Origin: a virus
Lineage: Duplodnaviria; Caudoviricetes
Direction: 5' to 3' (one strand)
DNA: 64,000 nucleotides
Virus record (IMG/VR): IMGVR_UViG_3300031134_000004
Location: 32,001-96,000 of that record
Shown: positions 6,208-51,938 of the stretch, piece after piece
Position numbering within the stretch: the first letter of the stretch is position 1
Layout of the letters: every line of letters starts with the position of its first letter
The notes under the pieces: model-generated
Databases searched by the model: none
Seen by the model: only the letters and a program-made list of their open reading frames with translations
What the model was told of the DNA's origin: nothing
Program-made: the position numbers and the translations under genes

Positions 6208-6247
6208 GCGGCATAAAGAGAGAGGGGGTCACCCTCTCTCTTTTTTT
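6208..6247. terminator. Hairpin terminator preceded by GCGGCATAA
   Basis: gcggcataaa-gagagaggg-ggtca-ccctctctc-ttttttt. Confidence 0.75.
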
Positions 6248-6449: not shown

Positions 6450-6778
6450 ATTGTACGTTTGGTTTTATGAGCGCTTGCAATGCGGGCAACTAACTGCGTG
6501 TCAGGCAACAGCAAGTTACTGATAGTGCGGTCATTGTCCGTGGGTGATGTGAAGTTATTCATCCGCATTACGATCCAATGCATGTTGTCAGGCACCTTGT
6601 GAAACGAGAGCAGACTAAAAAAATCGAACTCGTACTTATATGCTGCCGCAGGATCAATCGCAACAATTTCTCGTACATTTTGACGCAGCACCGTCATGTG
6701 CGCTTCCAACACATTCCGGAAGTCCGGGTCGTAGTAGATGGAGGCGCCTGGGTCCCGCATGAGGTTATCCACAAGCAT
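6446..6778 (-). CDS. Conserved small protein, possibly baseplate-wedge/LysM-like (T4 gp53-like)
   Basis: AAAGGA RBS before the ATG at 6778; YKYEFDFFSLL...HWIVMRMNNFTSP pattern resembles LysM-like tail/baseplate proteins. Confidence 0.55.
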   Translation of the reverse strand: MLVDNLMRDPGASIYYDPDFRNVLEAHMTVLRQNVREIVAIDPAAAYKYEFDFFSLLSFHKVPDNMHWIVMRMNNFTSPTDNDRTISNLLLPDTQLVARIASAHKTKRTI

Positions 6779-7146: not shown

Positions 7147-7314
7147 ATGAAGTCGATACCCAAGATCAAGATGGAGCCAAACAAGCTCTGCGATCCTAAA
7201 CAAATGCCAGCACTGGGCCTGAATCCTTGGGAACAGCATTGCTGCATCGGCCCACGTAAGCTGATGTTTAGTAGCTTTCATCAGCAACAAGCGCAACAGG
7301 GGAAAAGCAAATGA
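7147..7314 (+). CDS. 55-aa microprotein homologous to the N-terminus of the downstream RNAP beta subunit, not in ORF track
   Basis: AAGGAG RBS; translates MKSIPKIKMEPNKLCDPKQMPALGLNPWEQHCCIGPRKLMFSSFHQQQAQQGKSK; TGA overlaps the next ATG (ATGA). Confidence 0.75.
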   Translation: MKSIPKIKMEPNKLCDPKQMPALGLNPWEQHCCIGPRKLMFSSFHQQQAQQGKSK

Positions 7315-9446
7315 AACAACAACCCAACGAATTGCGTCGCGATTTGATGGGCGTGAACGGTCTCAATCCTTGGGACGGGCACGATTCCAGTAGCCGCAAA
7401 CAAATGTTCTCGAGCCACATCGGCCAGACTCTCGTCATCAAGGGAGCAACGGAACGTTACGTGCAAACCGGCATGGAGCGCGAATACGGCAAGTACACCT
7501 TCTCGATGAAGATGCCTGTCGATGCGGAAATCATCCGCGTCATTGATCGCTATCCACAAAAGCTCGGCCTGGATACCATCCGGATGAATCCACAAAGCGT
7601 GGTGATCTTCGAAGACTTCAATACCAAAGAAGTCGGCATGATCGACTTGCGCAAGTACTGTTCTTACCACCAGTACTTCGGTTTCGAATACCAGCAACGT
7701 GAAGCGTTATCGCGCGTGCGTGCTGGTGCTCATTTGCAAGCCGGTGAAATCCTGATGGACTCGCCTTCGGTGAAAGCCAACGGCGGCTACGCATACGGTC
7801 GTCAACTGAACATGGCGTTCATGTCGATCCCAGGCGTATCTGAAGACGGTATTGCGATCTGTGACGACGTACTGCCGCACTACCGCTTCAACACTTACGA
7901 GCACCGCGTGGGTGAATGGGGTAGCAAACGCTTTGCGCTCAATCTGTACGGGGACGATGAGAACTATAAACCGTTCCCAGACATTGGCGACAAGATCCGT
8001 CCTGACGGGCTCTTGATGTGTCTGCGCAGTTACGACCGTGATCTGTCGGTGGTCGAGCAAAACATCAACAGCATGCGCGAGCCGGACTTCACGTTCGACA
8101 AGCTGATCTACGCAGCAGGCGCCGGCGGCACCATCGTGGACATCCGTGTTCACCATGATCCAACGCAAGGCTACCTGGGCGGCATGGATGCGCAGCCGGA
8201 GAAGTACGACAAAGCCCGTCGTGAATTCTACCAGCAGATCGCCAACGAGTACTTCCGCTTGAAGCGTGAGCGGGGTGACCGTTTGCAGTTGACGCCAGAG
8301 TTTCACCGCATGGTCGTGGAAGCCTTGTCCGTTATCGACAACGATCCACAGCGCGTCATCAAGCTGTACCGTCAAGCACCGCTGGATGAATGGCGTGTCG
8401 AATTTACGATCCAGTACGAGATCACGCCAACCATTGGCTTTAAGCTGACGGACTGCCACGGCGGTAAGGGCGTTATCTGTAAGATCATGAAGCGCAGCGA
8501 GATGCCGGTTGACGAAGCAGGTAACTCTGCCGACATCATCATGGACCCGAACTCGACGATCAGCCGGATGAACATCGGCCGTTTGTACGAGCAATACATC
8601 AACGCAGCTTCGCGTGACGTGGCCAAGCAGATTCGCTTTGAACTGGGGATCGAACAAGGCGACAAGCACGCTGGACGTAAGATCGAAGAGATCGAAAAGG
8701 TCAATCCAGCTCTGGTGGACAAGGTGTGGAACTACTTGATGGGCTACTACGCCATCGTCTCGCCCAAGCAGTACGGCTGGTTCGCCAACAAGCAATATAC
8801 AAAACCCCGTGCGGAACACTTGGGTAAGATCGTCGAGACCCACATCTACCTGTACATGCCACCGGACAATGAGCCCGAGTCGGTGGACATCATCAACGAA
8901 CTGCAAAAGCACTACCGGCCAACGTATGGTCCTGTGTCGTACGTGGGCAATTCGGGCAAGCGCGTCACAACGAAGAACCCAGTGCGTGTCGGCAGTATGT
9001 ACATCATCTTGCTCGAGAAGATCGGCGATGATTGGACAGCAGTCTCGTCCGGCAAGCTGCAACACTTCGGTGTTCTCTCGCAAGTGACAAATACCGACAA
9101 GTACGCAACGCCAACGCGTAACCAAGCAATTCGTGCATGGGGCGAATCCGAAGTGCGTATCGGTGTGTCGTACGTGGGACCAGAGTTCGTGGCGGACATG
9201 ATGGACCGTAATAACAATCCAGCCACGCACCGCATGATCCTCGAATCGATCCTGGAAGCTGACAAGCCAACGGCGATTCGCATGGCGGTGGACCGTAACG
9301 TCATTCCGCTCGGTGGTGCTAAGCCACTGCAACTGGTCAAGCACATTGCTGAGACTGGTGGTTGGCGGTTTGTGTACAGGGATTACCTGCCGAACTGGCC
9401 GGACTACAATCCACAGCGTTACCAATTCAAACCAGCCTTTGTTTAA
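7311..9446 (+). CDS. rpoB: Non-virion RNA polymerase beta subunit, C-terminal part (phiKZ gp71-73-like), uninterrupted
   Basis: GLNPW...RKQMFSS, SEDGIAI, GFKLTDCHGGKGVICKI, DIIMDPNSTISRMNIGRLYE and GESE motifs of beta-family subunits. Confidence 0.95.
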   Translation: MKQQPNELRRDLMGVNGLNPWDGHDSSSRKQMFSSHIGQTLVIKGATERYVQTGMEREYGKYTFSMKMPVDAEIIRVIDRYPQKLGLDTIRMNPQSVVIFEDFNTKEVGMIDLRKYCSYHQYFGFEYQQREALSRVRAGAHLQAGEILMDSPSVKANGGYAYGRQLNMAFMSIPGVSEDGIAICDDVLPHYRFNTYEHRVGEWGSKRFALNLYGDDENYKPFPDIGDKIRPDGLLMCLRSYDRDLSVVEQNINSMREPDFTFDKLIYAAGAGGTIVDIRVHHDPTQGYLGGMDAQPEKYDKARREFYQQIANEYFRLKRERGDRLQLTPEFHRMVVEALSVIDNDPQRVIKLYRQAPLDEWRVEFTIQYEITPTIGFKLTDCHGGKGVICKIMKRSEMPVDEAGNSADIIMDPNSTISRMNIGRLYEQYINAASRDVAKQIRFELGIEQGDKHAGRKIEEIEKVNPALVDKVWNYLMGYYAIVSPKQYGWFANKQYTKPRAEHLGKIVETHIYLYMPPDNEPESVDIINELQKHYRPTYGPVSYVGNSGKRVTTKNPVRVGSMYIILLEKIGDDWTAVSSGKLQHFGVLSQVTNTDKYATPTRNQAIRAWGESEVRIGVSYVGPEFVADMMDRNNNPATHRMILESILEADKPTAIRMAVDRNVIPLGGAKPLQLVKHIAETGGWRFVYRDYLPNWPDYNPQRYQFKPAFV

Positions 9447-9491
9447 CATTGATGTCTCCCCCTTAAATTGGGGGAGATGGGGAAATCAATA

Positions 9492-11537
9492 ATGCGACGT
9501 TATTTAGCACGCCGACTACTCGACTTTAGTATCGAGGACTTGTGGTCGGTCTTGGATGGTGAATTCATCCTGATCTTTGATGATGGCGAAGTCCAGACCA
9601 ACTGGAAAGAAACCGTCTACAGCGTCTACGCTTGGGACTTCCACCGGAACTTCCCAGCTACGCCGTTGCTTACACAACACCACGTCACGACGGTCCTGGG
9701 GGGCGATCGTCTGGGTTCGGATACCCATTTGCAGTTGTTGGGCAATGCCATGTGGTCGGTCTACGATGAGTACGTGCCGTCGGGCCGGTTCCACAACACG
9801 AACTTGAGCGAAGTGCAGTTCCGTGACAAGCTGGCAGAGAAAGTGTACCAAGTCACGAACCTGATGTACAACGAACTGAGCTACAAGCTTGAAGACATGG
9901 TGGTCTCGCTCGACATCGTGGACTTCCTGGACGTTGTCAATCACCCAGCCATCAAGAAAGCGAACGACACGGTTGTCGGTACACAGCGTTCGATCGATGA
10001 ATCTTACGCAATCGGTAAAGCCACACTGCTCGATGGTGTGTCGTTGCCAGACAACCCAATCTCGCTGGCTGCGCGTTCCAAGCTCGTGAACATGAACCAA
10101 GTGCTGCAATGCATCATGTCGCGTGGTTTCTTGACCGACACCGATTCGCACCTGTTCTATAAGCCGGTGCTGCGCGGTTACGTGCATGGCATGCGCTCGT
10201 TCCACGATTCGCTCATCGAGTCGCGTTCGGCTGCGAAGTCCTTGATCTTCTCGAAGACGCCGCTGCAACAGGCCGAGTACTTCTCGCGGCGTTTGCAGTT
10301 GATGTCGCAAGTGGTCAAGAACCTACACTACGGCGATTGCGGTACGGATCGCTACACGCTCTGGCATGTGCGTGGTCCACGAAGCGAGAACGGCGAACTC
10401 AAGCGTCCGGGCGATTTGAAGATGCTGGTCGGTAAGAAATACATCGACGAGAACGGCAACCTGCGTTCGATCAAGGGTAGCGACAAACACCTGATCGGCA
10501 CCACGATTAAGATGCGTAACACGATCCACTGCGCGCATCCTGATCCGTACGGTGTGTGCTCGACCTGCTTCGGCGAACTGGCTCTGTCGATTCCGGAAGG
10601 TACGAACATCGGCCAGATGTGCTGCACGAGCTTGGCACAGAAGTCTTCGCAGAACGTGCTGTCCGTGAAACACTTGGATGGTTCGTCCGTGGTTGACGGT
10701 ATCGTGCTGGAACGGGAAGATCGTCGCTTCGTGAAGGTTGCGGCTGACGAAAACTCGTACATGCTTGCCGATGAACTGAAAGGTTCCCAAGTACGCCTGG
10801 TGCTGCGCGCAGAAAACGCAGCGAACATCACGGACATCAAAGACGCCAAGGACGTCAGCGAACTGAACATTACGCGTGTGTCGGAATTGGCAGAGATTGG
10901 TCTGCAAGTGACGAACCAAAAAGGCGTGGTGTTCGAGCCTGTGCAAATTAACGTCAGCCTCGGTCGCCGCTTGGCCAGCATGACGTACGAAATGCTCGAG
11001 CACATCCGTAAGCACGGCTGGACGATTGATGATCGTTCGGGTAACTACATAGTGGACATGACGCAGTGGGATTGGAGCAAACCGTTCCTGACCCTGCCGC
11101 TGAAACACTTTAACATGAGCGACCACTCGCGTGACATCGCTTCCATGCTCGAATCGTCGGTCGATAAGCTGCAAGAGCGCGACCAAAACAAAGCATCGCC
11201 TGACGCTGCCCTGATCGAGTTGTTTGACCTGGTCAACGACAAGCTGACGGTGAACGTGGCGGTACTGGATGTTGTGCTGTACGGCAGCATGGTGGTGTCG
11301 ATCGAGAAAGGCGACTACAGCTTGCCAAAACCGTGGACGAGTTCAAACTTGGGTGTCATGAAGTTGTCGATGGCGTATCGCAGTGGTGCATCTGCCATGG
11401 CGTACGAAGGTCACCGCGACTTCATCACCGATCCGTTGAGCTACGTGAATACCAACCGCATTGATCACCCAATGGATGGCGTCTTGATGCCAGCCGAAGT
11501 GATCATGCCTAAGCGCGTGGAGTATAACTTCACATGA
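9492..11537 (+). CDS. rpoC: Non-virion RNA polymerase beta-prime middle subunit (phiKZ gp74-like)
   Basis: Bridge-helix SRSAAKSL...AEYFSRRLQL, DCGT, Zn site CAHPDPYGVCSTCFG, trigger-loop NIG...QKSSQNVLSVKH; ORF track starts at 9468 but the ATG at 9492 is more likely. Confidence 0.93.
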   Translation: MRRYLARRLLDFSIEDLWSVLDGEFILIFDDGEVQTNWKETVYSVYAWDFHRNFPATPLLTQHHVTTVLGGDRLGSDTHLQLLGNAMWSVYDEYVPSGRFHNTNLSEVQFRDKLAEKVYQVTNLMYNELSYKLEDMVVSLDIVDFLDVVNHPAIKKANDTVVGTQRSIDESYAIGKATLLDGVSLPDNPISLAARSKLVNMNQVLQCIMSRGFLTDTDSHLFYKPVLRGYVHGMRSFHDSLIESRSAAKSLIFSKTPLQQAEYFSRRLQLMSQVVKNLHYGDCGTDRYTLWHVRGPRSENGELKRPGDLKMLVGKKYIDENGNLRSIKGSDKHLIGTTIKMRNTIHCAHPDPYGVCSTCFGELALSIPEGTNIGQMCCTSLAQKSSQNVLSVKHLDGSSVVDGIVLEREDRRFVKVAADENSYMLADELKGSQVRLVLRAENAANITDIKDAKDVSELNITRVSELAEIGLQVTNQKGVVFEPVQINVSLGRRLASMTYEMLEHIRKHGWTIDDRSGNYIVDMTQWDWSKPFLTLPLKHFNMSDHSRDIASMLESSVDKLQERDQNKASPDAALIELFDLVNDKLTVNVAVLDVVLYGSMVVSIEKGDYSLPKPWTSSNLGVMKLSMAYRSGASAMAYEGHRDFITDPLSYVNTNRIDHPMDGVLMPAEVIMPKRVEYNFT

Positions 11538-13136: not shown

Positions 13137-13156
13137 CATATATTCCCTAAGTGAGA
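13137..13156 (+). promoter_or_regulatory. Putative early promoter
   Basis: catatattccctaagtgaga; near-identical to 51919-51938; heads an accessory gene cluster. Confidence 0.65.
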
Positions 13157-20052: not shown

Positions 20053-20883
20053 ATGTTGACGATTTTGAGCGACTACTTAAAAGAAGCAGCCACGCCTGAA
20101 TTGCGTGAAGCGCTTGAAGGTGCGCATGATGCGTTTGACCGGATTAACCTCGAGAATTACACGCTCGAGTTTGAAAAGCACTTGATGCAAGACGGTTCGG
20201 TTGACCGTGGCAATACCTTGGTGTTCGTCACAGAACTGACGCGCTTAATGCTCACGGACTTGCTGCGTCAACACGAAATCATCCCAGCGCACGACGCCAG
20301 CATCGAAACCTTGACGCTCTTCCTGAACGGCATTCTCGACATTCAAGAGTACGAGAACTACGCCGACATCATCAACATCGTGGCCATGGAAAGTAACGCA
20401 CAAGAAACTTTCGCTGAACTCATGACGCTTGTCTCGCCTCGCTCTGTGGAAGACTTGCTTGTGGATCTGGAAGAAGTACACTTTGCCGTCATCACCCGCA
20501 TTCGTGACATGGCAATCCAGATGGACATTCCACCACCGTCAGTGCAAGAGCAAGAACAAGAGCGCGCCTACATTGAAAAGCTCAATCGCTTCCTGGGTTA
20601 CATCCAGCAAAAGCCATTGCAGATCGTGGCGATGCTCAAGAACGGCCTGGACGTGGGCTTCCCATTCTTGACCTACGTGGGTTTGATCGGGGCTGAAATC
20701 GAACAGTGGCCGGTGGACAAGATTGCCAACGAACTCATGGCGATGGCGCTCGTGTCAAATGACGGGACGAACAATCCCTTGAGCATCATCAAAGAACATT
20801 TGGAGAACTACATCTCCGACATGAACAAACTCACCAAGGTTGACATTAAACTCGGTGAGATTTCCTTAGGACTGCAGCGATGA
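20053..20883 (+). CDS. Conserved protein (phiKZ gp79-like by synteny)
   Basis: 276 aa, CAGGA RBS, ATGA overlap with the vRNAP subunit gene. Confidence 0.65.
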   Translation: MLTILSDYLKEAATPELREALEGAHDAFDRINLENYTLEFEKHLMQDGSVDRGNTLVFVTELTRLMLTDLLRQHEIIPAHDASIETLTLFLNGILDIQEYENYADIINIVAMESNAQETFAELMTLVSPRSVEDLLVDLEEVHFAVITRIRDMAIQMDIPPPSVQEQEQERAYIEKLNRFLGYIQQKPLQIVAMLKNGLDVGFPFLTYVGLIGAEIEQWPVDKIANELMAMALVSNDGTNNPLSIIKEHLENYISDMNKLTKVDIKLGEISLGLQR

Positions 20884-22190
20884 ACAAGAAAGACTTTTTC
20901 CTAGCCGCGATGCATGCAGAAGAATTCCTACGCCGTGCGTGGGTCTTTTCTGCCTTTGCGCTTATTAATGAAGACGCGGACAAGTGGAAGGAAAACCCTT
21001 ACCCTTACCGGATTGTGCAAACGCCGTCTGGTCACTTTTTCGTTGACCCCAACAACGGCAACCAGCTCTCGCCCATTGAAGGCACCAAAGCGGGCGAACC
21101 ACCATTTGCTCCCAAGGAACGCCAGCAACTCAAAGCGAATGACTTGCCAAACCTTAAAGTCGATGTTGACACCACGTACGGTCGCATCCTCTTTAACTGT
21201 GTGGTGATTGTCTGGGCACTCAATAACAAGATCGACTATCTGAACGAACGCGTTAATCCTCGCGCTTTGGAAGACATGATCCTGCCGCGCTTGACTGACA
21301 CCCCAGCTGAAGGCGAACCACGCGAAGACCAACCGATTTACGTCGATGAGTATCTGGATTTTTGCGATGCAATGTTTTTCATGGCAGGCTTCACGCAGAT
21401 CTGCGCGCCGGCCGGATCACGGAAAGCCATGGTCCAAGCCCCAGGCATGCGGGAGCTGCGGGCGAAACTCATTGCTGAAAACAAAGACCGCCTGCATGAC
21501 CCGGCAGTCGTGGCGAAGATCGATGCTGAATTGGTGGCGTTCGATAAAGCGTACCTTAAAGGCGACCCAGCAGAAGGGTTCCTCATGGGTAAGAGTAAGA
21601 GTTACAACATCGTGCGTAAGAAGCTCTTTGGCATGCATGGTGCTGAAGTCGGTCTGTCTGAAGGCGTGGACGTGGACCTGATTCAAAACTCCCTGTCTGA
21701 AGGTTGGGACATCACCAAATTCCCAGCGATGAACAACTCGCTGCGTGCTGGTTCCTTTAACCGTGGTCACCAGACGATGATGGGTGGTGAGGAAGTCAAG
21801 TGGATGCTGCGCGCTTCGTCGAACATGGCAGTTACCGCGGATGACTGTGGCACCAAGCTTGGTCTTCCCATGCACGTTGACAACACCAATTACAAAAAGC
21901 TCGTGGGCTTTAGTGTCGTATCTGAGAAAGGCAGCATCAAAGTCAATACTGACGATGAAGCCAAATCCTATCTCGGCAAACACATCATGCGGCGCAGCCC
22001 GATGTTGTGTAAGTTACCCAAGACTGACTTTTGTAAAGTCTGTGTGGGCGATCGTCTGGCAGAAAACCCAACCTCTCTGTCGTCGGCTGTGTCAGCTTAC
22101 GGTAGTGCCTTCATGGACATTTACATGCAGGCAGGTCACGGTAAAGCTCTGACGGTTGCACACTTGGATTACAAGAGCGCGATCCGGTAA
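20880..22190 (+). CDS. rpoC: Virion RNA polymerase beta-prime C-terminal subunit (phiKZ gp80-like)
   Basis: RAGSFNRG, DCGT, RRSPMLCKLPKTDFCKVCVG Zn site. Confidence 0.88.
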   Translation: MNKKDFFLAAMHAEEFLRRAWVFSAFALINEDADKWKENPYPYRIVQTPSGHFFVDPNNGNQLSPIEGTKAGEPPFAPKERQQLKANDLPNLKVDVDTTYGRILFNCVVIVWALNNKIDYLNERVNPRALEDMILPRLTDTPAEGEPREDQPIYVDEYLDFCDAMFFMAGFTQICAPAGSRKAMVQAPGMRELRAKLIAENKDRLHDPAVVAKIDAELVAFDKAYLKGDPAEGFLMGKSKSYNIVRKKLFGMHGAEVGLSEGVDVDLIQNSLSEGWDITKFPAMNNSLRAGSFNRGHQTMMGGEEVKWMLRASSNMAVTADDCGTKLGLPMHVDNTNYKKLVGFSVVSEKGSIKVNTDDEAKSYLGKHIMRRSPMLCKLPKTDFCKVCVGDRLAENPTSLSSAVSAYGSAFMDIYMQAGHGKALTVAHLDYKSAIR

Positions 22191-22270: not shown

Positions 22271-23032
22271 ATGGCTGAGCAACAAAACGATCAAACCCAA
22301 ACGAATCAAACCACCCAAGCTACCACCGGCGCCGAGCAAGTCACGCAGCAACCAGCTGCTTCGACCGAAACCGCACCTGCAACCCCAGCACCAACCGCAC
22401 CAACTGCAACGACCACCCCTGTCGCGCCAGCTCCGAAGCCGGCCGTCACCACCGTGACCAAGGTCACGCAGCAGCAGCCTGCCAAGCAAACCCTGGCCGA
22501 CGCCATCAAGAGCGGCGCCCCAGTTGTGACCAACACCAAAGCACCTGCTACCACCGTTACCCCGACCGAAACCGCCACGCAAGAACTGATCGCCAAAGCG
22601 CAAGCTGAAGCCTCGAGCGCCGGCCGCGTGATCCTGCAAAACGTGCTGGACTACATGCAAGCCATGGACCCGAAGAAGCCAGTGAACGCTGACATCGGCT
22701 CGCGTTACCAAGTATCGCTGTACCGCGCCATCACCCGCACCATCAACAACCTGGGCGACGACTTCGACCTGGTCTTCACCGCCATCCTGCGCCTGTTCGC
22801 CGACAACGGCAGCGACGTGTTCGCCGAACGTTTCGTGTTCCGCTTCATGGACAGCGTGAACCTGAGCAGCGACGAGATCAAAGGCTACCAGCGTCTGCTG
22901 AACCTGCTGATCAACACCGCTGATCCGAAAGGCCGCGCTTCGGGCCTGAAGATGACGGACTTCAACAAGACGCTCGAATTCGGTCTGACCGAAGAAGGCC
23001 GTGCTCGTGTCCTGACGTACTTCAACAAGTAA
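22271..23032 (+). CDS. Probable virion protein with Thr/Ala/Pro-rich N-terminus
   Basis: AGGAG RBS; highly biased codons like the structural genes; helical C-terminal domain. Confidence 0.65.
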   Translation: MAEQQNDQTQTNQTTQATTGAEQVTQQPAASTETAPATPAPTAPTATTTPVAPAPKPAVTTVTKVTQQQPAKQTLADAIKSGAPVVTNTKAPATTVTPTETATQELIAKAQAEASSAGRVILQNVLDYMQAMDPKKPVNADIGSRYQVSLYRAITRTINNLGDDFDLVFTAILRLFADNGSDVFAERFVFRFMDSVNLSSDEIKGYQRLLNLLINTADPKGRASGLKMTDFNKTLEFGLTEEGRARVLTYFNK

Positions 23033-23044
23033 TCCTTGTTGTCA

Positions 23045-23081
23045 AGCCAGAGGGGAGAAATCCCTTCTGGTTTTATGCCGC
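23045..23081 (+). terminator. Hairpin followed by TTATGCCGC
   Basis: gccagagggg-agaaa-tcccttctgg-ttttatgccgc. Confidence 0.7.
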
Positions 23082-23113
23082 CTTGAAAAAAAACGATCCT
23101 AATTTATCTCAGA

Positions 23114-23133
23114 CGTATATTCTACAAGTGAGA
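23114..23133 (+). promoter_or_regulatory. Putative early promoter
   Basis: cgtatattctacaagtgaga; same TATATT...AAGTGAGA frame as 13137 and 51919. Confidence 0.6.
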
Positions 23134-23179
23134 TACATTCGTTATCAAGACACCCATTTCACTTTTAAAGGAAAAAATC

Positions 23180-23548
23180 ATGACCATGTCCCTCGTCCAG
23201 ACTATCTTAGCTGCTGCGAAGAACAACCACTCAATTCTTAATTGGGATGGCCAGTCGTGCAAAGACGATATTCTGGAAAACATCCGGCATTATGTTTCGC
23301 GCTTTACTGGCTACAAGAAGTTGGCCGTAACGTTTGAAAACGGGAAACTGGAGATCCATGCGGAGACGACTTACACCCCGCATCAAGTGTGGGACTCCAT
23401 GCTTCCTGCACCAGAACCGCTGGTGGACTACGTGCACCTGCTTTCTTACAACGTCGTAAGTGGTCGCGAGACGTATGGTCGCCTTCATCACGTCGGCTTT
23501 TATTATCCGCACCTTGCTGAACTTGAAGTATTGGGAACAGCGCAGTAA
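23180..23548 (+). CDS. Hypothetical protein, 122 aa
   Basis: AAAGGA RBS. Confidence 0.7.
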   Translation: MTMSLVQTILAAAKNNHSILNWDGQSCKDDILENIRHYVSRFTGYKKLAVTFENGKLEIHAETTYTPHQVWDSMLPAPEPLVDYVHLLSYNVVSGRETYGRLHHVGFYYPHLAELEVLGTAQ

Positions 23549-23589
23549 TACCTTCCTTTTTGTCTACCTATCTACCTGAGGATTCCACC

Positions 23590-24117
23590 ATGGCCCAAGC
23601 CAAACCTGCCTTTGATTATCAAGCATTTCAACAGGCCCTCGCACAATTTACCGAAGACCTTCTCGAACACACTTGGTCGTTCCAGACGTCCAGTTACTTC
23701 CAACTGATGGAAGCGCAAAGCGCAGAGAGCGAACTCTTTAAGCGCGCCCTGCTTCTGGGTATCCAAGGCGTCGATGCGTTTAACTATCGCCGCATTGAAA
23801 CCTTGAAAGAAATTCGTGATGCCGAATACGAACGTGGTCGCAAAGCGCAAGAAGAGCGGATGCAGTCCAGCGTCGATTACTACAAGAACAAGCTCGAAGA
23901 AACGCGCACCATGTACATGAAGCCGATTGACTTCTATAACGAGAAGCTCGAAAAGCATGATTGGTACTACGATTTCAGTGACGACATCACGGTGTATCGC
24001 CGTGGTAAGAAAGTGCGAGAAGAACTGGAAAAAGAAGCCCAAGAAGGTGGTCCAGAATTCGCTGCTGCACTTGCTGCTGCAAAACAACGTCTTTACGACA
24101 ACATCCGCAAGCAATAA
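23590..24117 (+). CDS. Hypothetical helical protein with HDWYYDFSDD motif
   Basis: GAGGA RBS before the ATG at 23590. Confidence 0.72.
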   Translation: MAQAKPAFDYQAFQQALAQFTEDLLEHTWSFQTSSYFQLMEAQSAESELFKRALLLGIQGVDAFNYRRIETLKEIRDAEYERGRKAQEERMQSSVDYYKNKLEETRTMYMKPIDFYNEKLEKHDWYYDFSDDITVYRRGKKVREELEKEAQEGGPEFAAALAAAKQRLYDNIRKQ

Positions 24118-24179
24118 TTTAATCAGATGGCCGGGAAAGACCCGGCCTTTACTACTTACAAGTGTAAAAGGAAACTACC

Positions 24180-24707
24180 ATGAAGAACAATCTTCTGGGC
24201 GGCAATATCTTCATCCAACCATCCAAGAGCACAATCGAGCGTTTGAAGATGATCAAGGCAGTATTTGACACCATCATGCTCGGTCCTATTGCAAGGCGTC
24301 CTCTGACCATAGAAGTCGGTGTGTCAGCTTCGACGATCACGAAGATCATGAAGCTCTTTTACGAAGCTGGCATTGCAAACCAAGCGCCCGTAACTGGTTT
24401 TGCCCAACCCGTGTCGTATTCGTTTATTCCTGACCATGAGTTGCTGGTGGAATTTAATACGCAGCTTACCAACCACATTCTTTATTCCGAACAGTGTGTC
24501 GCTGGTGTTGTTGAGTGGCAGCCACCTACCGGGGAAGCACCGGTGCCAAGGAAAGAAAAGTTCGGCAGGACCAATCTCTTTACCGTATTTGAGTACGCAC
24601 CAGGACGTCGTATCTATTCGTCCGATGCACACTCAGCGCACTCGATGCGTCAACTCAGTAAAGAGCAAATGCAAATCGATCCCCTGCGCAAAGCAGGTCT
24701 TCTGTAA
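24180..24707 (+). CDS. Hypothetical protein with possible winged-HTH N-terminus
   Basis: IARRPLTIEVGVSASTITKIMKLFYEAGI resembles an HTH/wHTH; AAAAGGA RBS. Confidence 0.6.
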   Translation: MKNNLLGGNIFIQPSKSTIERLKMIKAVFDTIMLGPIARRPLTIEVGVSASTITKIMKLFYEAGIANQAPVTGFAQPVSYSFIPDHELLVEFNTQLTNHILYSEQCVAGVVEWQPPTGEAPVPRKEKFGRTNLFTVFEYAPGRRIYSSDAHSAHSMRQLSKEQMQIDPLRKAGLL

Positions 24708-24751
24708 CATCAAGTGCCGGGGTAAGTCCCGGCTATAACTGGAGAAACAAA

Positions 24752-25540
24752 ATGAGCGAACGCAAAATCAACAAAGCCATTGAGCTGCTTAAAGAAAACA
24801 ACTTCATCGTCGTGCCGCGTCCTGAAGACCATTACGATGAATTCAAATACAAGGAAATCTTCGACACTCCACTCAAGGACTTCTTGCAGCCACATCTGCC
24901 AAAAGCGACCGCCACGCGGATTTACAATTCGCTCAATTATCCAACTGACCCAGACACTCGTTATGTCGGTCAGCTCGTTGCGCGTCCGGATTTCATGGTG
25001 CAGGCTTATCCTAACCTGGGTAAGAAGTCGTTTGAAGACCTGCAGCGGGTTCTTTACAAGCACGTACTTACCTTCAGCATGAACACGCAAGGTTGGATGC
25101 CACCGACGCCACGACCGGCGAAAGAGAAGTCCAATGTACAAGACTATGTCGCCCCAGAAAGCTATCGTCGTGGTTTTATCGAGCGCTACCAACCTGGTGC
25201 CCGCTTTCCTATCGGCGCTACTGCCAGCCTGTTGTTAAACCAGATCGAAAAATGGCCCATCATGAATGACCGTGATGTTCATGCCATGGTGGTCATGAAA
25301 AACGAACGTGGACATTTCCAGACAGTTCATGCCATTAGTCTGGGTGAAGACAGGCGTTACTATTCGCGCGGTTTGGCGGTTGCTGAATTCCGTTACCTCA
25401 TGGAAGAGTGGAAAGATAAAAATGGCGAAGTACGTGCCGGCTTGGGACGCAATGAGTTTCGTATCAAGGAACTTACCTCCGTTAAACCCCTTGTCATGGA
25501 AGGTGGCTGGGAAGCAAATGAGCTGGCTCTCTTGACTTAA
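24752..25540 (+). CDS. Protein containing an RNA polymerase alpha-CTD-like domain
   Basis: TRIYNSL...YVGQLVAR...YPNLGKKSFEDLQRVL...TFSM..QGWMPP parallels the bacterial RpoA CTD (RSANCL..YIGDLVQR..TPNLGKKSLTEIKDVL..LSLGM..WPP). Confidence 0.8.
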   Translation: MSERKINKAIELLKENNFIVVPRPEDHYDEFKYKEIFDTPLKDFLQPHLPKATATRIYNSLNYPTDPDTRYVGQLVARPDFMVQAYPNLGKKSFEDLQRVLYKHVLTFSMNTQGWMPPTPRPAKEKSNVQDYVAPESYRRGFIERYQPGARFPIGATASLLLNQIEKWPIMNDRDVHAMVVMKNERGHFQTVHAISLGEDRRYYSRGLAVAEFRYLMEEWKDKNGEVRAGLGRNEFRIKELTSVKPLVMEGGWEANELALLT

Positions 25541-25551
25541 CTAAAGAAATA

Positions 25552-25968
25552 ATGATGAAGAAAAATACCTACGAAAAGATTGGTGGTGGCATTCAGCCAA
25601 TCCCGCGCAAGCAACTCGTGCCCGTGCGTTTCCCGATGGGCGCAACAGCCGAAGCGTTGTGGAAAGTGTTGCACGACTGGCCTGAACTGGATCGTGATGA
25701 CGACTTGCAAATGGTGTGCATTGATAAGGGTGGCTTGTCCAGCACCGTCAAGTGCATTTACTTCGGTGATGAGCGTCACACGTACACTGGCGGCCTGTCG
25801 ATCCGGGCCATCAAGATCTTGCTTGCTACCCGTCGTCGTATGAAGGGTGAAGTCAAGGTCGATACGGTCGATGGTGAAGTGGTCAGTATCCGGAACTTCT
25901 GGCCACTTGACCGGCGTGAACTCGATGATGGCAGCCAAACGGCTGAAATCATTATCAACGCTGACTAA
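25552..25968 (+). CDS. Hypothetical protein, 138 aa
   Basis: ORF track; ends at a convergent terminator. Confidence 0.7.
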   Translation: MMKKNTYEKIGGGIQPIPRKQLVPVRFPMGATAEALWKVLHDWPELDRDDDLQMVCIDKGGLSSTVKCIYFGDERHTYTGGLSIRAIKILLATRRRMKGEVKVDTVDGEVVSIRNFWPLDRRELDDGSQTAEIIINAD

Positions 25969-26020
25969 GCGGCATAAGGCTGGGGAGAAATCCCCAGCCT
26001 CGTATGACCTCTTTTTTTTT
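25969..26020. terminator. Bidirectional hairpin between convergent genes
   Basis: gcggcataa-ggctgggga-gaaa-tccccagcc-tcgtatgacc-tctttttttt; near copy of 16761-16810. Confidence 0.8.
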
Positions 26021-26026
26021 GCCTGT

Positions 26027-27754
26027 TTAGATGCTTGGCTCGTAGACTTTGTCACCAGTGTGAATCAAGAACGCTTCCAGCAACTTTTCTTGGGTAGGCA
26101 TCGAGTACATGTCCACGCAAAACTCGGTAGCGTTGACGTGACCAGCACTCAGGTTCACACCTTGTGTCCGCTGAATGCTCTCTGGTACACCCAGAATACG
26201 AACGAGTTCCTTGTGCGTGGTTTCCTTGGAGATGTTAAAGACCGCACCGCCATTTGGATACGATGCCGATACGTCCAAGTCACCAACGTGCGCACGGATG
26301 TTCGTCATCTGGAATTCGTTCTCCATGATCACGTTCAATCCGTTGTCGTCCACAAGGTGAGCAGGTAAGGTAACGATCCACCCATCCAGGCCCACAGTAA
26401 ATTCATCCAACTCCGTACTCATCTCGTCCGAGGTCGAACCGAACACCTTCTCGTTTTCCAAGCAGAAGTAATGAAGCTTATCTGCCAGACGACGTGGTTG
26501 CGACTTGAAGTTCTCGAAGTCCGAGTGCGCCGAATACAGCGGCAGCGTCACGCACAAGTCCAGCGTCTTCTCATCGAGCATTTGCATGCAGACCGAATCG
26601 AACACGTTATAGATCACGTATTCCAGCGGGTGCTTTGCTTGCATGAATTGGTGCCACTCCAGTCCACTGTAGCTGTCGGCTTCCTTGAACTTGAGCTTGC
26701 CCCCCAGGTCGTGCTTTTTCAAGATCGAGTCCAGCGAGTACGACGGCTCTTCTTGGTTACCAGTACGAATGTGGCGGTAAGCACACATGGCGTCCATGAA
26801 GTAGAACGAGGCTGGCGCGTAAGCGGTGTGCCATTGCGCTGACGGTTTAATGGGTGTGACTTTACCAGAAGCGGTTACTTTCTGGTTGGGCCCCTTCTTG
26901 AACTTGAAGAACTGGAAACCAGCTTCAATGACTTTCGGGTCAGAAAACACCATGGCAGGATCGATGCCGTCTTTCTCGAGCGCCTTGAGCATCTTGTCCA
27001 TGTCGAACGTGATGTTCCAGATCGAGACGAAGTCAGGTTGCCATTCATGCGCTTTCTTAAAGCACTCGATGACGATGTCCGATTCCTTCTCAACGATCTT
27101 GATCTCCCACTCAAGACCACGCTTTTCCACTTGCTCACCCATGTAGGCACGCAAGAGCTTTTGCAGACGCTCTTCCACTTCAGCATGGCCTTCAACGAAC
27201 CACGCACGAATGGCAGTAAAGACTTTGTTACCATGGGAGATCGTTCCCATGATGATTTCATCCGTACCACGATTAACGTCCGTTTCCGTATCGAACGGTG
27301 CTGCCGTGTAGCGGGTGACTAAGTCAGGCCACTTTTCTTGGTAGCTGCGTTTGAGCACAGCAGTGGAGAGAATATCCGTACCGTAGAGATACGGGTTGCG
27401 GTTCAAGCGACGCATGTCGCCTTTAAACCATGGCTCACCCACGGCGCGCGCTGCGCTGTCGATCAGGTTAATTTGCGTCGATTCAAAACGCGAGACCCGG
27501 TCTTCGTGTTCCCATTCTTTTTTGTCGTTGTGGTCACGGAAACCCTTCTTCGTAACCCAGAAAGGACGCTTATAGTTGGTGATCAAGCGCAGGTTTGGCA
27601 CTTGGATGATTTGGTCACCTTGCTTAACGTGCAAGATCTCTTTAACGACGTGCAAGTCATTGCGTGAATTGTCGTTAGGCATGCAGTGCGTAGCGAAGCG
27701 ACACTCGATACCAACGACATCTTCACGAGCGTATTTGGGCATAGGGGTATTCAT
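26027..27754 (-). CDS. Family B DNA polymerase, exonuclease-containing subunit of a split enzyme (phiKZ gp82-like)
   Basis: Exo I FDTET, Exo II WNITFDM, YFMDAMCAY, Exo III YNVFDS, polymerase motif A DLDVSASYP near the C-terminus; motifs B and C absent. Confidence 0.88.
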   Translation of the reverse strand: MNTPMPKYAREDVVGIECRFATHCMPNDNSRNDLHVVKEILHVKQGDQIIQVPNLRLITNYKRPFWVTKKGFRDHNDKKEWEHEDRVSRFESTQINLIDSAARAVGEPWFKGDMRRLNRNPYLYGTDILSTAVLKRSYQEKWPDLVTRYTAAPFDTETDVNRGTDEIIMGTISHGNKVFTAIRAWFVEGHAEVEERLQKLLRAYMGEQVEKRGLEWEIKIVEKESDIVIECFKKAHEWQPDFVSIWNITFDMDKMLKALEKDGIDPAMVFSDPKVIEAGFQFFKFKKGPNQKVTASGKVTPIKPSAQWHTAYAPASFYFMDAMCAYRHIRTGNQEEPSYSLDSILKKHDLGGKLKFKEADSYSGLEWHQFMQAKHPLEYVIYNVFDSVCMQMLDEKTLDLCVTLPLYSAHSDFENFKSQPRRLADKLHYFCLENEKVFGSTSDEMSTELDEFTVGLDGWIVTLPAHLVDDNGLNVIMENEFQMTNIRAHVGDLDVSASYPNGGAVFNISKETTHKELVRILGVPESIQRTQGVNLSAGHVNATEFCVDMYSMPTQEKLLEAFLIHTGDKVYEPSI

Positions 27755-51918: not shown

Positions 51919-51938
51919 CATATATTCCTTAAGTGAGA
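51919..51938 (+). promoter_or_regulatory. Putative early promoter
   Basis: catatattccttaagtgaga, 19/20 identical to 13137-13156. Confidence 0.65.

Follow-up and report, generated by a model that had tools for sequence, protein, structure and literature searches.

The gene at 24752–25540 of the window, the whole 64,000-nucleotide stretch of phage DNA that was analysed, encodes a protein (P0001) in which residues ~30–120 are a real but strongly diverged RNAP alpha-CTD. We read this protein as a free-standing alpha-CTD homologue which might compete for the DNA upstream of host promoters, and we give this overall reading a rough probability of 0.35. The phage is phiKZ-like and comes from a phyllosphere metagenome; a chimallin gene and genes for virion and non-virion RNAP subunits were found, which bears out the phage type named in a preliminary description of the sequence. 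The RNAPs of phiKZ-type phages are alpha-less (PMC7598289), as was also said there. The gene and its parts are the following.

24752..25540, + strand: gene for the alpha-CTD-like protein (P0001), 262 aa, from the ORF list and translation
24752..24838, + strand: N-terminal segment, residues 1–29, a predicted helix (3–15) and then a loop
24839..25111, + strand: alpha-CTD-like double helix-hairpin-helix domain, residues ~30–120, from sequence, models and charge
25112..25195, + strand: linker rich in proline and charge, residues 121–148, AF2 pLDDT <50
25196..25537, + strand: C-terminal alpha/beta domain, residues 149–262, from AF2

A GGAG ribosome-binding site stands ahead of the gene at 24741–24744, and our own gene caller gave 24752–25540 a codon-usage score of 65.6. 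The N-terminal segment showed an AF2 pLDDT of about 65 and no family match in Pfam or PHROGs; across residues 1–38 it shared 39% identity with the orthologue on contig L003, a related phage. A likeness of the first ~20 residues to the beginning of HicA-type proteins was dropped, as Pfam gives no support for it. The linker is the least conserved part of the protein (21% identity to the L003 orthologue). Together with the folded domain 149–262 it makes up the ‘~140-aa domain’ that had been described behind the alpha-CTD, and which is real. The domain order is therefore CTD-like, linker, and then a domain without known fold. The Pfam scan found no alpha N-terminal dimerisation/assembly domain (PF01000/PF01193) in the protein, which, without such a domain to be tethered to, is not a subunit of a polymerase.

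The alpha-CTD-like domain, placed by the preliminary description at 24860–25110 (residues 37–120), was confirmed by sequence matches and by fold. Exhaustive phmmer searching of 1.84 billion (1.84e9) protein representatives with P0001 gave 16 matches, two of them orthologues. The other 14 were all of the alpha-CTD type (PF03118 in 10 of the 10 scanned, the remaining four judged by eye from the motif), with a best E value of 1.6e-9. All 23 PDB sequence matches of the protein were RNAP alpha, and a profile made from the orthologues only gave 26 of 26 PDB sequence matches to RNAP alpha with a best E value of 1.4e-5. HMMER aligned residues 68–118 with E. coli alpha 274–324 (E 8.5e-5). Scores on Pfam PF03118 (RNA_pol_A_CTD) were 18.6 bits for the whole protein, 21.5 bits for residues 30–115, and 20.7 bits in the six-frame search, all under the gathering cut-off of 23.8 bits, which is an operational threshold and not a structural feature. 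MAFFT, the Pfam model, and the alpha-CTD segment profile agreed on a 3-residue insertion (63–65) after helix 1. Identity to any alpha-CTD was only ~30%, so a recent capture of host rpoA is unlikely.

The AF2 model of the domain had pLDDT values of 80–93. Foldseek, suggested earlier as the check for an alpha-CTD, returned RNAP alpha for all of the best 50 matches, with target-normalised TM values of 0.82–0.87. The VIA overlay on the E. coli alpha-CTD (3n4m_B) resulted in a Z of 11.5 and an rmsd of 1.4 Å over 74 of 74 residues, and the structural superposition showed 31–32% sequence identity. An independent ESM Atlas model, made by a single-sequence language model, matched alpha-CTD clusters with TM 0.74. 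These models indicate a compact helical fold with two helix-hairpin-helix units, the same double helix-hairpin-helix fold as in E. coli RpoA 249–329 (PF03118; PDB 1LB2, 3N4M, 3N97, 3K4G). The AF2 input alignment held alpha-CTD homologues, which could bias the model toward the alpha-CTD fold; this bias and the Pfam scores of 18.6 and 21.5 bits under the cut-off would be the case for chance or simple convergence, with no relation to the alpha-CTD. That explanation is extremely improbable against two exhaustive searches which matched alpha-CTD proteins only, the same fold in the single-sequence model, and the identity over the superposition.

The double helix-hairpin-helix fold is widely used for sequence-independent DNA binding. 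As the alpha-CTD is such a domain, P0001 might have a generic role in the replication, repair or compaction of the phage's DNA, and its descent from an alpha-CTD would then be incidental. The basic pI of the domain would fit such a role, as would the location of the gene next to the DNA polymerase gene. However, every structural and sequence match was an alpha-CTD, and RuvA domain II, ComEA, RAD51 N-terminal, and Pol-beta type (HhH)2 domains were not among the listed Foldseek, VIA, Pfam, and PDB-sequence matches. The equivalents of the base-reading R265 and N268 are also conserved, and the polymerase gene belongs to another transcription unit, so we consider a generic role quite unlikely. The alpha-CTD is itself an (HhH)2 fold, and the absence of other (HhH)2 matches is compatible with distant kinship.

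The residue pattern separates the faces of the domain. TRIYNSL occupies residues 55–61 (nt 24914–24934), PDFMVQ residues 79–84 (nt 24986–25003), and PNLGKKS residues 87–93 (nt 25010–25030), the last being a hairpin identical to that of E. coli alpha. In MAFFT, the Pfam model, and the alpha-CTD profile, R56, N59, S60, and L61 pair with E. coli alpha R265, N268, C269, and L270, respectively; N88, G90, K91, K92, and S93 pair with N294, G296, K297, K298, and S299. The 265 determinant (R265, N268, C269, G296, K298, S299) is matched by R56, N59, S60 (Cys to Ser), G90, K92, and S93, so the alignments agree with the equivalents of R265, N268, G296, K298, and S299 noted before in the two motifs. With the DNA-contact roles taken from the 265 determinant (PMC1874639), the predicted minor-groove and backbone DNA-contact residues of the alpha-CTD are retained. 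P0004, the orthologue with 45% identity, has the same residues at R56, N59, N88, G90, K91, and S93, and it keeps the 265 determinant except for a change of K298 to Ser. Conservation at G296, K297, and S299 is weaker evidence than that at R265 and N268, because the helix-hairpin-helix fold itself partly fixes those positions.

The partner-contact patches were replaced. The 261 determinant (acidic D259/E261, in contact with sigma region 4) reads L-P-K-A-T-A-T in P0001 and L-P-K-G-K-V-T in P0004, and neither stretch contains an acidic residue. The HMMER alignment sets PNLGKKS against PNLGKKS and PDFMVQ against TEVELL, which upholds the reported exchange in the 287 determinant (T285–L290, contacted by CAP AR1 and other activators); P0004 has PREMYE there. 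Glu at position 286 is present in 10 of 11 aligned bacterial alpha-CTD segments, most of which show T/S-E-x-E/D. The domain has a net charge of +3/+4 and a pI of 9.4–9.6, with +3 and 9.4 for residues ~30–120 of P0001, compared with −3 and 5.3 in the canonical alpha-CTD. By its residue pattern this copy is a natural separation-of-function variant of the alpha-CTD, with the DNA face kept, the partner faces erased, and the charge reversed.

A decoy acting at the protein level, by sequestering alpha-CTD partners as the preliminary description had proposed, would soak up alpha-CTD dockers and modifiers such as activators, NusA, sigma region 4, and the ADP-ribosyl- or acetyl-transferases of competitors or defence systems. 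The overall alpha-CTD fold is very closely retained, and R265, the residue targeted by T4 Alt/ModA, is conserved. The alpha-CTD is a known target of phages, which modify it by ADP-ribosylation and acetylation (PMC7824862). However, the known partner-contact patches are exactly the non-conserved parts: both orthologues have other residues at the 261 and 287 surfaces, which such a decoy would need, and a reversed surface charge. This weakens the proposal to the point where we find it very unlikely. With the partner faces lost, partner sequestration is disfavoured and DNA binding is the best reading.

The alpha-CTD-like gene lies within a five-gene unit (23180–25968), with the gene for a virion-RNAP subunit on one side and that for the DNA polymerase on the other; the latter is on the opposite strand in a separate transcription unit. 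The features of this region are listed below.

23047..23080, + strand: GC-rich hairpin and then TTATGCCG, just upstream of the early-type motif
23114..23133, + strand: early-type promoter motif C(A/G)TATATTC N6 TGAGA, 47 nt upstream of the first gene of the unit
24180..24707, + strand: 175-aa gene of the five-gene unit, upstream of the alpha-CTD-like gene, with a weak winged-helix-like match at residues 21–68
24716..24733, no strand given: 6-bp GC hairpin within the operon, directly upstream of the alpha-CTD-like gene
25552..25968, + strand: P0002, 138 aa, free-standing paralogue of the C-terminal domain, next gene after the alpha-CTD-like gene
25978..26023, no strand given: bidirectional terminator-like hairpin between the convergent 138-aa gene and DNA polymerase gene

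The window contains three exact copies of the early-type motif, each intergenic and in + orientation, where 0.43 would be expected even with two mismatches allowed. Across the genome, 14 of 16 TATATT[CA] sites were intergenic. An extended form of the motif is conserved ahead of the syntenic unit in L003, and the motif fits the AT-rich early consensus of RNAP-encoding jumbo phages (PMC7598289). Judged from this motif, the alpha-CTD-like protein is probably made early, from a promoter of the virion-RNAP type. A search of sequencing runs listed no RNA data set containing this DNA. The hairpin element at 23047–23080 is of a genome-wide type and has the same place in L003 and L004, the other contig with the gene; it may serve to terminate transcription and/or as a late-type start of the TATG kind. 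A hairpin similar to the one at 24716–24733 is located at 24129–24147, and the L003 hairpin at 9966–9984 has the same position and stem, with a different loop. The hairpin at 25978–26023 ends the unit and is conserved in L003 (11216–11281) and L004. For the 175-aa protein, PDB phmmer gave 2hoe_A (ROK-family N-terminal domain, E 0.031) and Pfam gave HVO_A0261_N (E 0.081), both weak; its orthologue in L003 is 37% identical.

The C-terminal domain (149–262) was modelled by AF2 on alignment A3 with a pLDDT of 79.5 and a pTM of 0.75. It carries an RFPxGATA...WP motif and lacks conserved residues of a catalytic type. Foldseek against the PDB gave no convincing match (best E 0.27), and VIA against 48,161 PDB representatives gave a best Z of 3.4, with weak glutamine-synthetase N-domain and NTF2-like rows. 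In the ESM Atlas only unnamed viral clusters matched (TM 0.6–0.69), and the best BFVD match was an uncharacterised Rhodococcus phage protein (E 7e-3, TM 0.46). The profile search of proteins with this domain returned the same clade only. We make no claim of a new fold. P0002 matched the domain in BLASTP at 4e-13 (34% identity over 80 residues) and was colinear with it in alignment A3; in L003 a paralogue of the domain (9505–9957) is upstream of the alpha-CTD gene instead. The effector function first suggested for this domain found no support, as it has no known fold, no catalytic-type residues, and a separate paralogue next door. It is more likely a binding or oligomerisation module and not an enzyme.

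The gene was present on only two other contigs, L004 (97% identity) and L003 (42–45%, syntenic), and is known only from these three metagenomic contigs of uncultured phage. The L004 orthologue showed 16 synonymous and 8 non-synonymous codon differences, which means that the gene is under purifying selection. Identity to L003 was 42–45% for the alpha-CTD-like protein compared with ~80% for the flanking core genes; a divergence so much faster than that of the flanking core genes is typical of host-interaction accessory genes. No PF03118-like match was detected by six-frame search in phiKZ, RP12, or FLC9, and in Burkholderia phage FLC9 and Ralstonia phage RP12 the syntenic ORFs encoded neither an alpha-CTD nor a relative of the C-terminal domain. 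In phiKZ the place of the five-gene unit is taken by gp81 alone, flanked by gp80 and gp82. Neither the DNA of the locus nor P0001 (tblastn) had a match in 50,697 phage records, and pattern scans of IMG/VR, run with P0001 and the DNA polymerase, likewise returned no relatives. A word-indexed search of 5.8e9 proteins returned only the 97% orthologue, and PHROGs had nothing for P0001 or P0002. The gene is not in the core gene set of phiKZ-like phages. Whatever its role may be, that role is accessory, because the gene is found in three contigs only and is absent from phiKZ, RP12, and FLC9. Within the phage, no other alpha homologue was seen except one weak orphan alpha-CTD-like ORF, P0021, which had no relatives in either of two protein searches. 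In the papers searched we found nothing relevant on alpha-CTD-like proteins of phages or jumbo phages, nor any study of free-standing alpha-CTD genes in phages, and the jumbo-phage comparative review was silent on such proteins.

Returning to the competitor reading, we infer that the protein would be synthesised early, from the virion-RNAP-type promoter, and would most likely bind AT-rich, UP-element-like DNA as an untethered module. That it occupies AT-rich or UP-type DNA is plausible, and the reversal of the domain charge from −3 to +3/+4 lends it some support. As the phage does not use the host RNAP, the likeliest target is the DNA upstream of host promoters; there the protein would be in competition with the alpha-CTDs that belong to the host polymerase itself. 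This competition would damp strong host promoters, e.g., rrn, and the C-terminal domain, which also exists as a separate paralogue, might serve binding or oligomerisation. The DNA binding of an alpha-CTD on its own is weak, which would make a monomer a poor competitor of the holoenzyme. The Ser at the K298 position of P0004 is an observation against the competitor reading.

Keeping the DNA face while losing the host-partner faces would also suit a phage transcription factor, which would replace the missing alpha-CTD in trans on AT-rich DNA upstream of phage promoters in the phage nucleus; its C-terminal domain would provide the contact to the phage's alpha-less RNAP or to a different phage factor. 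Jumbo-phage RNAPs indeed have no alpha. The phiKZ middle promoters show only a weak AT-rich upstream motif, and the purified non-virion RNAP does not transcribe them in vitro (PMC7598289), so a factor is missing for them, and a protein of this kind could be that factor. The location of the gene between the virion-RNAP subunit and DNA polymerase genes, beside the winged-helix-like gene, is consistent with this, and an early product could act on middle or late promoters. However, none of the cultured phages searched, phiKZ, RP12, and FLC9 included, has the gene, which rules it out as a general component, and it diverges much faster than the RNAP subunits. A transcription factor is therefore possible, if on the unlikely side. 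Put more specifically, P0001 could be an early-made, detachable alpha-CTD for an alpha-less viral polymerase, which would read AT-rich DNA ahead of a class of phage promoters and, via its C-terminal domain, bring in or stabilise the multisubunit RNAP of the phage. The protein would then enter the phage nucleus, with the free-standing paralogue as competitor or partner; we hold this version to be unlikely. In general, service to the phage's own DNA or polymerase, which the preliminary description did not take up, may be the role of the protein just as a host decoy may.

Compared with the bacterial alpha-CTD, the phage protein is untethered, falls under the Pfam cut-off, has the 3-residue insertion after helix 1, carries replaced 261 (sigma region 4) and 287 (CAP AR1) patches, is basic and not acidic, and is followed by an unrelated domain. 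Its best non-orthologous matches are bacterial free-standing or tandem alpha-CTD proteins (P0005–P0018; E 1.6e-9 to 1e-3, 29–38% identity over ~60–70 residues), some of them fusions with sigma-70 region 4, FGE-sulfatase or RRM domains. In contrast to P0001, these proteins have the family's T-E-x-E-h-h motif in helix 3 and Pfam scores far over the cut-off, and none has the C-terminal domain of P0001. Bacillus phage vB_BmeM-Goe8 gp5 (QDP42789.1, annotated ‘RNA polymerase subunit alpha’) also combines an alpha-CTD with a phage-specific domain; like P0001, it is uncharacterised, and its gene has a position of the early or host-takeover type. Goe8 gp5 scores 78 bits on PF03118 and belongs to a host-RNAP-dependent phage, whereas P0001 has diverged much further in this domain and shows the opposite order, its alpha-CTD standing ahead of the other domain. 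Having an alpha-CTD joined to a phage-specific module and no alpha N-terminal domain, P0001 is a member of the phage free-standing alpha-CTD proteins, an unnamed class without experimental definition.

Free-standing alpha-CTD genes are recurrent in phages, and the usual guess is that they redirect the host RNAP. Redirecting it to phage promoters cannot be the purpose here, because this phage does not use the host RNAP and its own RNAPs lack alpha. The choice narrows to host-promoter shutdown via competition for upstream DNA, or an upstream-DNA reader for the phage polymerase. The DNA-binding and expression behaviour of this separation-of-function copy would be informative for the whole class. 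If the detachable alpha-CTD were true, it would be the first promoter-upstream reader for jumbo-phage RNAPs, a case of a virus re-inventing a lost module in trans.

The alpha-CTD-like protein P0001 is encoded by an ORF chosen by a codon-usage gene caller, with a GGAG ribosome-binding site 8 nt 5' of its ATG. The gene and the features around it are listed below.

Features of the window that bear on the alpha-CTD-like gene
7311-9446, 9468-11537 and 20880-22190: subunits of the split multisubunit RNAP
23114-23133, + strand: candidate early-promoter motif, C(A/G)TATATTC N6 TGAGA, upstream of the five-gene unit
23180-25968, + strand: five-gene unit, with the alpha-CTD-like gene as the fourth
24752-25540, + strand: alpha-CTD-like gene (P0001), ORF of 262 aa
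25552-25968: next gene (P0002), 138 aa, free-standing paralogue of the P0001 C-terminal domain (BLASTP 4e-13)
25978-26023: bidirectional terminator-like hairpin closing the five-gene unit
26027-27754, - strand: phiKZ-type DNA polymerase gene

A copy 97% identical was found in a 6-kb Logan contig, with 16 synonymous and 8 non-synonymous codon differences. L003, a 168-kb contig of a sister phage, carried a full-length orthologue (P0004, 42-45% identity) between the same core genes. The gene caller's pick, this copy and the syntenic orthologue establish that the gene is real. It was not found in phiKZ, Ralstonia phage RP12 or Burkholderia phage FLC9.

The Pfam model PF03118 matched residues 55-101 with 18.6 bits, or 21.5 bits when the segment was searched alone; both scores lie under its cut-off of 23.8 bits. 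A phmmer search of PDB sequences gave RNAP alpha for 21 of the 21 matches to E 0.2 and for 22 of 23 to E 10; the top match was E. coli alpha-CTD (E 8.5e-5, P0001 68-118 against alpha 274-324). Exhaustive phmmer over 1.84 billion representatives returned 16 proteins, two of them orthologues. The other 14 matched residues ~54-125 only (best E 1.6e-9), and PF03118 domains well over threshold were present in all ten of these that were scanned. A profile built solely from the three orthologues had 26 PDB matches, every one of them RNAP alpha (best 1.4e-5).

The AF2 model showed residues 30-120 at pLDDT 80-93; its input alignment included alpha-CTD homologues, so the model is not independent. The preliminary description had claimed an alpha-CTD fold, and structural comparison bore this out: the top 50 Foldseek PDB matches were all RNAP alpha (target-normalised TM 0.82-0.87), and VIA-align superposed model residues 30-116 on alpha 249-322, spanning all 74 residues of 3n4m_B (Z 11.5, rmsd 1.4 Å, 31% identity). 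The single-sequence ESM Atlas model also had alpha-CTD clusters among its structural neighbours (TM 0.74). As every test besides the Pfam cut-off points to alpha-CTD and to nothing else, the resemblance is real, and alpha-CTD is both the homologue and the predicted fold.

Residue equivalences, in E. coli alpha numbering, were anchored on the PDB phmmer alignment. MAFFT, the Pfam model and an alpha-CTD-segment profile concurred in a 3-residue insertion after helix 1; this profile was built from sequences chosen as P0001 matches, which biases its score, and only its register was used. Alpha-CTD has a DNA-binding '265 determinant' (PMC1874639). In P0001, R56, N59, S60 and N88 correspond to R265, N268, C269 and N294, and in the hairpin G90, K91, K92 and S93 correspond to G296, K297, K298 and S299. 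The DNA-binding face had been described as kept, and the equivalents of R265, N268, G296, K298 and S299 are indeed present. The eight paired residues all belong to the 265 determinant, and of their positions the 45%-identical P0004 keeps every one save K298, which is Ser.

The acidic 261 patch, which in alpha-CTD contacts sigma region 4, is replaced by L-P-K-A-T-A-T in P0001 and L-P-K-G-K-V-T in P0004. The 287 patch contacts CAP and other activators, and most aligned bacterial alpha-CTD segments show the T-E-x-E family pattern there; TEVELL becomes PDFMVQ in P0001 and PREMYE in P0004. The described change of the activator face is thereby upheld, and it extends to the sigma (261) face and to overall charge: the domain has a net charge of +3 to +4 and a pI of 9.4-9.6, compared with -3 and 5.3 for a canonical gamma-proteobacterial segment. 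It had also been suggested that P0001 sequesters alpha-CTD partners, which is improbable with the 261 and 287 contact patches lost.

A second, unrelated ORF of 222 aa (P0021) lies ~23 kb past the window end (L012:1141-1809, equal to G000:C1:119430-120098 of the phage record). It gave a sub-threshold PF03118 match (18 bits, E 0.0024, residues 121-173), and its PDB matches were RNAP alpha CTDs only, both weak. P0021 retains the Arg and the hairpin Gly; the K-K-S motif is not kept. No relatives were found in phage records or in a search of 5.8e9 proteins.

In the rest of P0001, residues 1-29 are predicted to form one helix followed by a loop, and the proline- and charge-rich linker (121-148) is poorly conserved (21% identity to the orthologue). 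Residues 149-262 are predicted to form a small alpha/beta domain (pLDDT 79.5, pTM 0.75); this confident fold was obtained with paralogues in the alignment. No convincing structural relative was seen (lowest Foldseek E against the PDB 0.27, top VIA Z 3.4). The ESM Atlas gave only unnamed viral clusters (TM 0.6-0.69), and the best BFVD match was an uncharacterised Rhodococcus phage protein. Across six sequences of this domain the invariant columns are mainly hydrophobic, Gly and Pro with one Glu, with no sign of an active site, and a binding or oligomerisation module is more likely than an enzyme. In L003 the paralogue gene stands upstream of the alpha-CTD gene, unlike in the window.

The source contig is a 224,654-bp IMG/VR virus contig, of which the window is bases 32001-96000; the sole sequencing run with the entire stretch was a phyllosphere metagenome. 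The window encodes homologues of the phiKZ nuclear shell protein gp54 (tblastn E 5e-16) and of gp55, gp68, gp69, gp70, gp80 and gp82. Together with the RNAP subunits and DNA polymerase, this predicted gene content assigns the phage to the phiKZ-like, nucleus-forming type. By DNA polymerase, its closest cultured relatives are FLC9 (57%) and RP12 (49%). RNAPs of phiKZ-type jumbo phages lack alpha and omega (PMC7598289).

In phiKZ (74181-79876), the genes for virion-RNAP subunit gp80 and DNA polymerase gp82 have gp81 alone between them. The same slot in the window (22271-27754) is occupied by the five-gene unit plus a gene of 253 aa, and the DNA polymerase gene is inverted relative to phiKZ. Since phiKZ has only gp81 there, the unit is, judged from gene order, an accessory insertion into the core block. 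L003 has three extra small genes within the syntenic unit. Between window and L003 the unit diverges much faster than its neighbours: its genes are 31-65% identical (alpha-CTD gene 42-45%), against ~80% for the RNAP subunit and DNA polymerase on either side.

Three exact copies of the early-promoter motif occur in the window (13137-13156, 23114-23133 and 51919-51938), all intergenic and on the + strand, where 0.43 would be expected even with 2 mismatches. Genome-wide, 14 of 16 TATATT[CA] sites are intergenic, and the motif recurs 5' of genes. An extended form, GATCCTA..TTAT....TATATTC......TGAGATACAT, is common to the window unit and L003 (6410-6470, before the syntenic unit). In every jumbo phage that encodes RNAPs, bioinformatic analysis can detect an AT-rich early-promoter consensus of ~10 nt (PMC7598289). 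From the recurrence of the motif, its conservation in L003 and its fit to this consensus, we infer that the alpha-CTD gene is expressed early, by the virion RNAP.

Other signals and genes were observed in and around the unit. A GC-rich hairpin with (T)TTATGCCG immediately after it recurs at 23047-23080 and 25969-26023, near 6216, 16769, 32695, 42690, 47911 and 51853, and elsewhere in the genome; it is placed at the ends of genes and in front of operons. Its opposite side often bears a mirror-image CATA, giving the same reading on both strands, and visual inspection showed the hairpin at about three dozen of the genome's 48 TTATGCC sites. By analogy with phiKZ, the element may serve both as a terminator and as a TATG late-type start. 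Two short GC hairpins lie inside the operon, at 24129-24147 (before a winged-helix-like gene) and 24716-24733 (before the alpha-CTD gene). Both are kept in L003 (7629-7647 and 9966-9984) with the same positions and stems and different loops, and might act in processing, stabilisation or attenuation. The upstream gene (24180-24707) encodes 175 aa, 37% identical to its L003 orthologue; residues 21-68 weakly match a winged-helix-like ROK-family N-terminal domain (E 0.031). The early-type unit would hold two putative DNA-binding proteins, this one and the alpha-CTD-like protein. Just behind its early-type promoter, L003 has a 51-aa ORF (6505-6660) with ~4 V-V-T-I-x-P-(D/E)-P-type repeats and no counterpart in the window.

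The conserved Arg and Asn, the lost partner faces and the gained positive charge point to DNA binding as the activity retained; these base-reading residues are unchanged across 55% sequence divergence. As for alpha-CTD, the target would most likely be the minor groove of AT-rich DNA. A helix-hairpin-helix role for P0001 unrelated to promoters is possible but rather unlikely. Phage alpha-CTD genes are usually guessed to redirect host RNAP towards phage promoters; as host RNAP is not used by this phage, that explanation is ruled out here.

Our tentative preference for the target is host upstream-promoter DNA (probability about 0.35), as the gene is optional, fast-evolving, apparently early and absent from phiKZ, RP12 and FLC9. 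P0001 would bind this DNA and compete there with the alpha-CTDs of the host polymerase, and strong host promoters would be reduced. Phage DNA is a possible and only slightly less favoured target, with P0001 as a trans-acting upstream reader for the alpha-less polymerase; the choice hinges on the cell compartment where P0001 acts.

P0001 shares the alpha-CTD fold with the RNAP alpha subunit but has no N-terminal assembly domain, and is therefore not an alpha subunit. It differs from a canonical alpha-CTD in scoring under the Pfam threshold and in lacking, of the three functional determinants, two (261 and 287). Its closest kind is the free-standing alpha-CTD proteins of phages, a clear cultured example being gp5 of Bacillus phage vB_BmeM-Goe8 (Herelleviridae; PF03118 at 78 bits). 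Goe8 gp5 has 210 aa (1959-2591 of segment L007), an unassigned N-terminal part and then a clear alpha-CTD. A second copy at 156544-156714 of the Goe8 record, one per terminal region, suggests a terminal repeat. The literature search returned no paper on such proteins, Goe8 gp5 included. The novelty of P0001 lies in its setting and form. It is an alpha-CTD protein of a nucleus-forming jumbo phage independent of host RNAP, and a basic, strongly diverged version in which the alpha-CTD precedes a clade-specific domain also encoded as a gene of its own.
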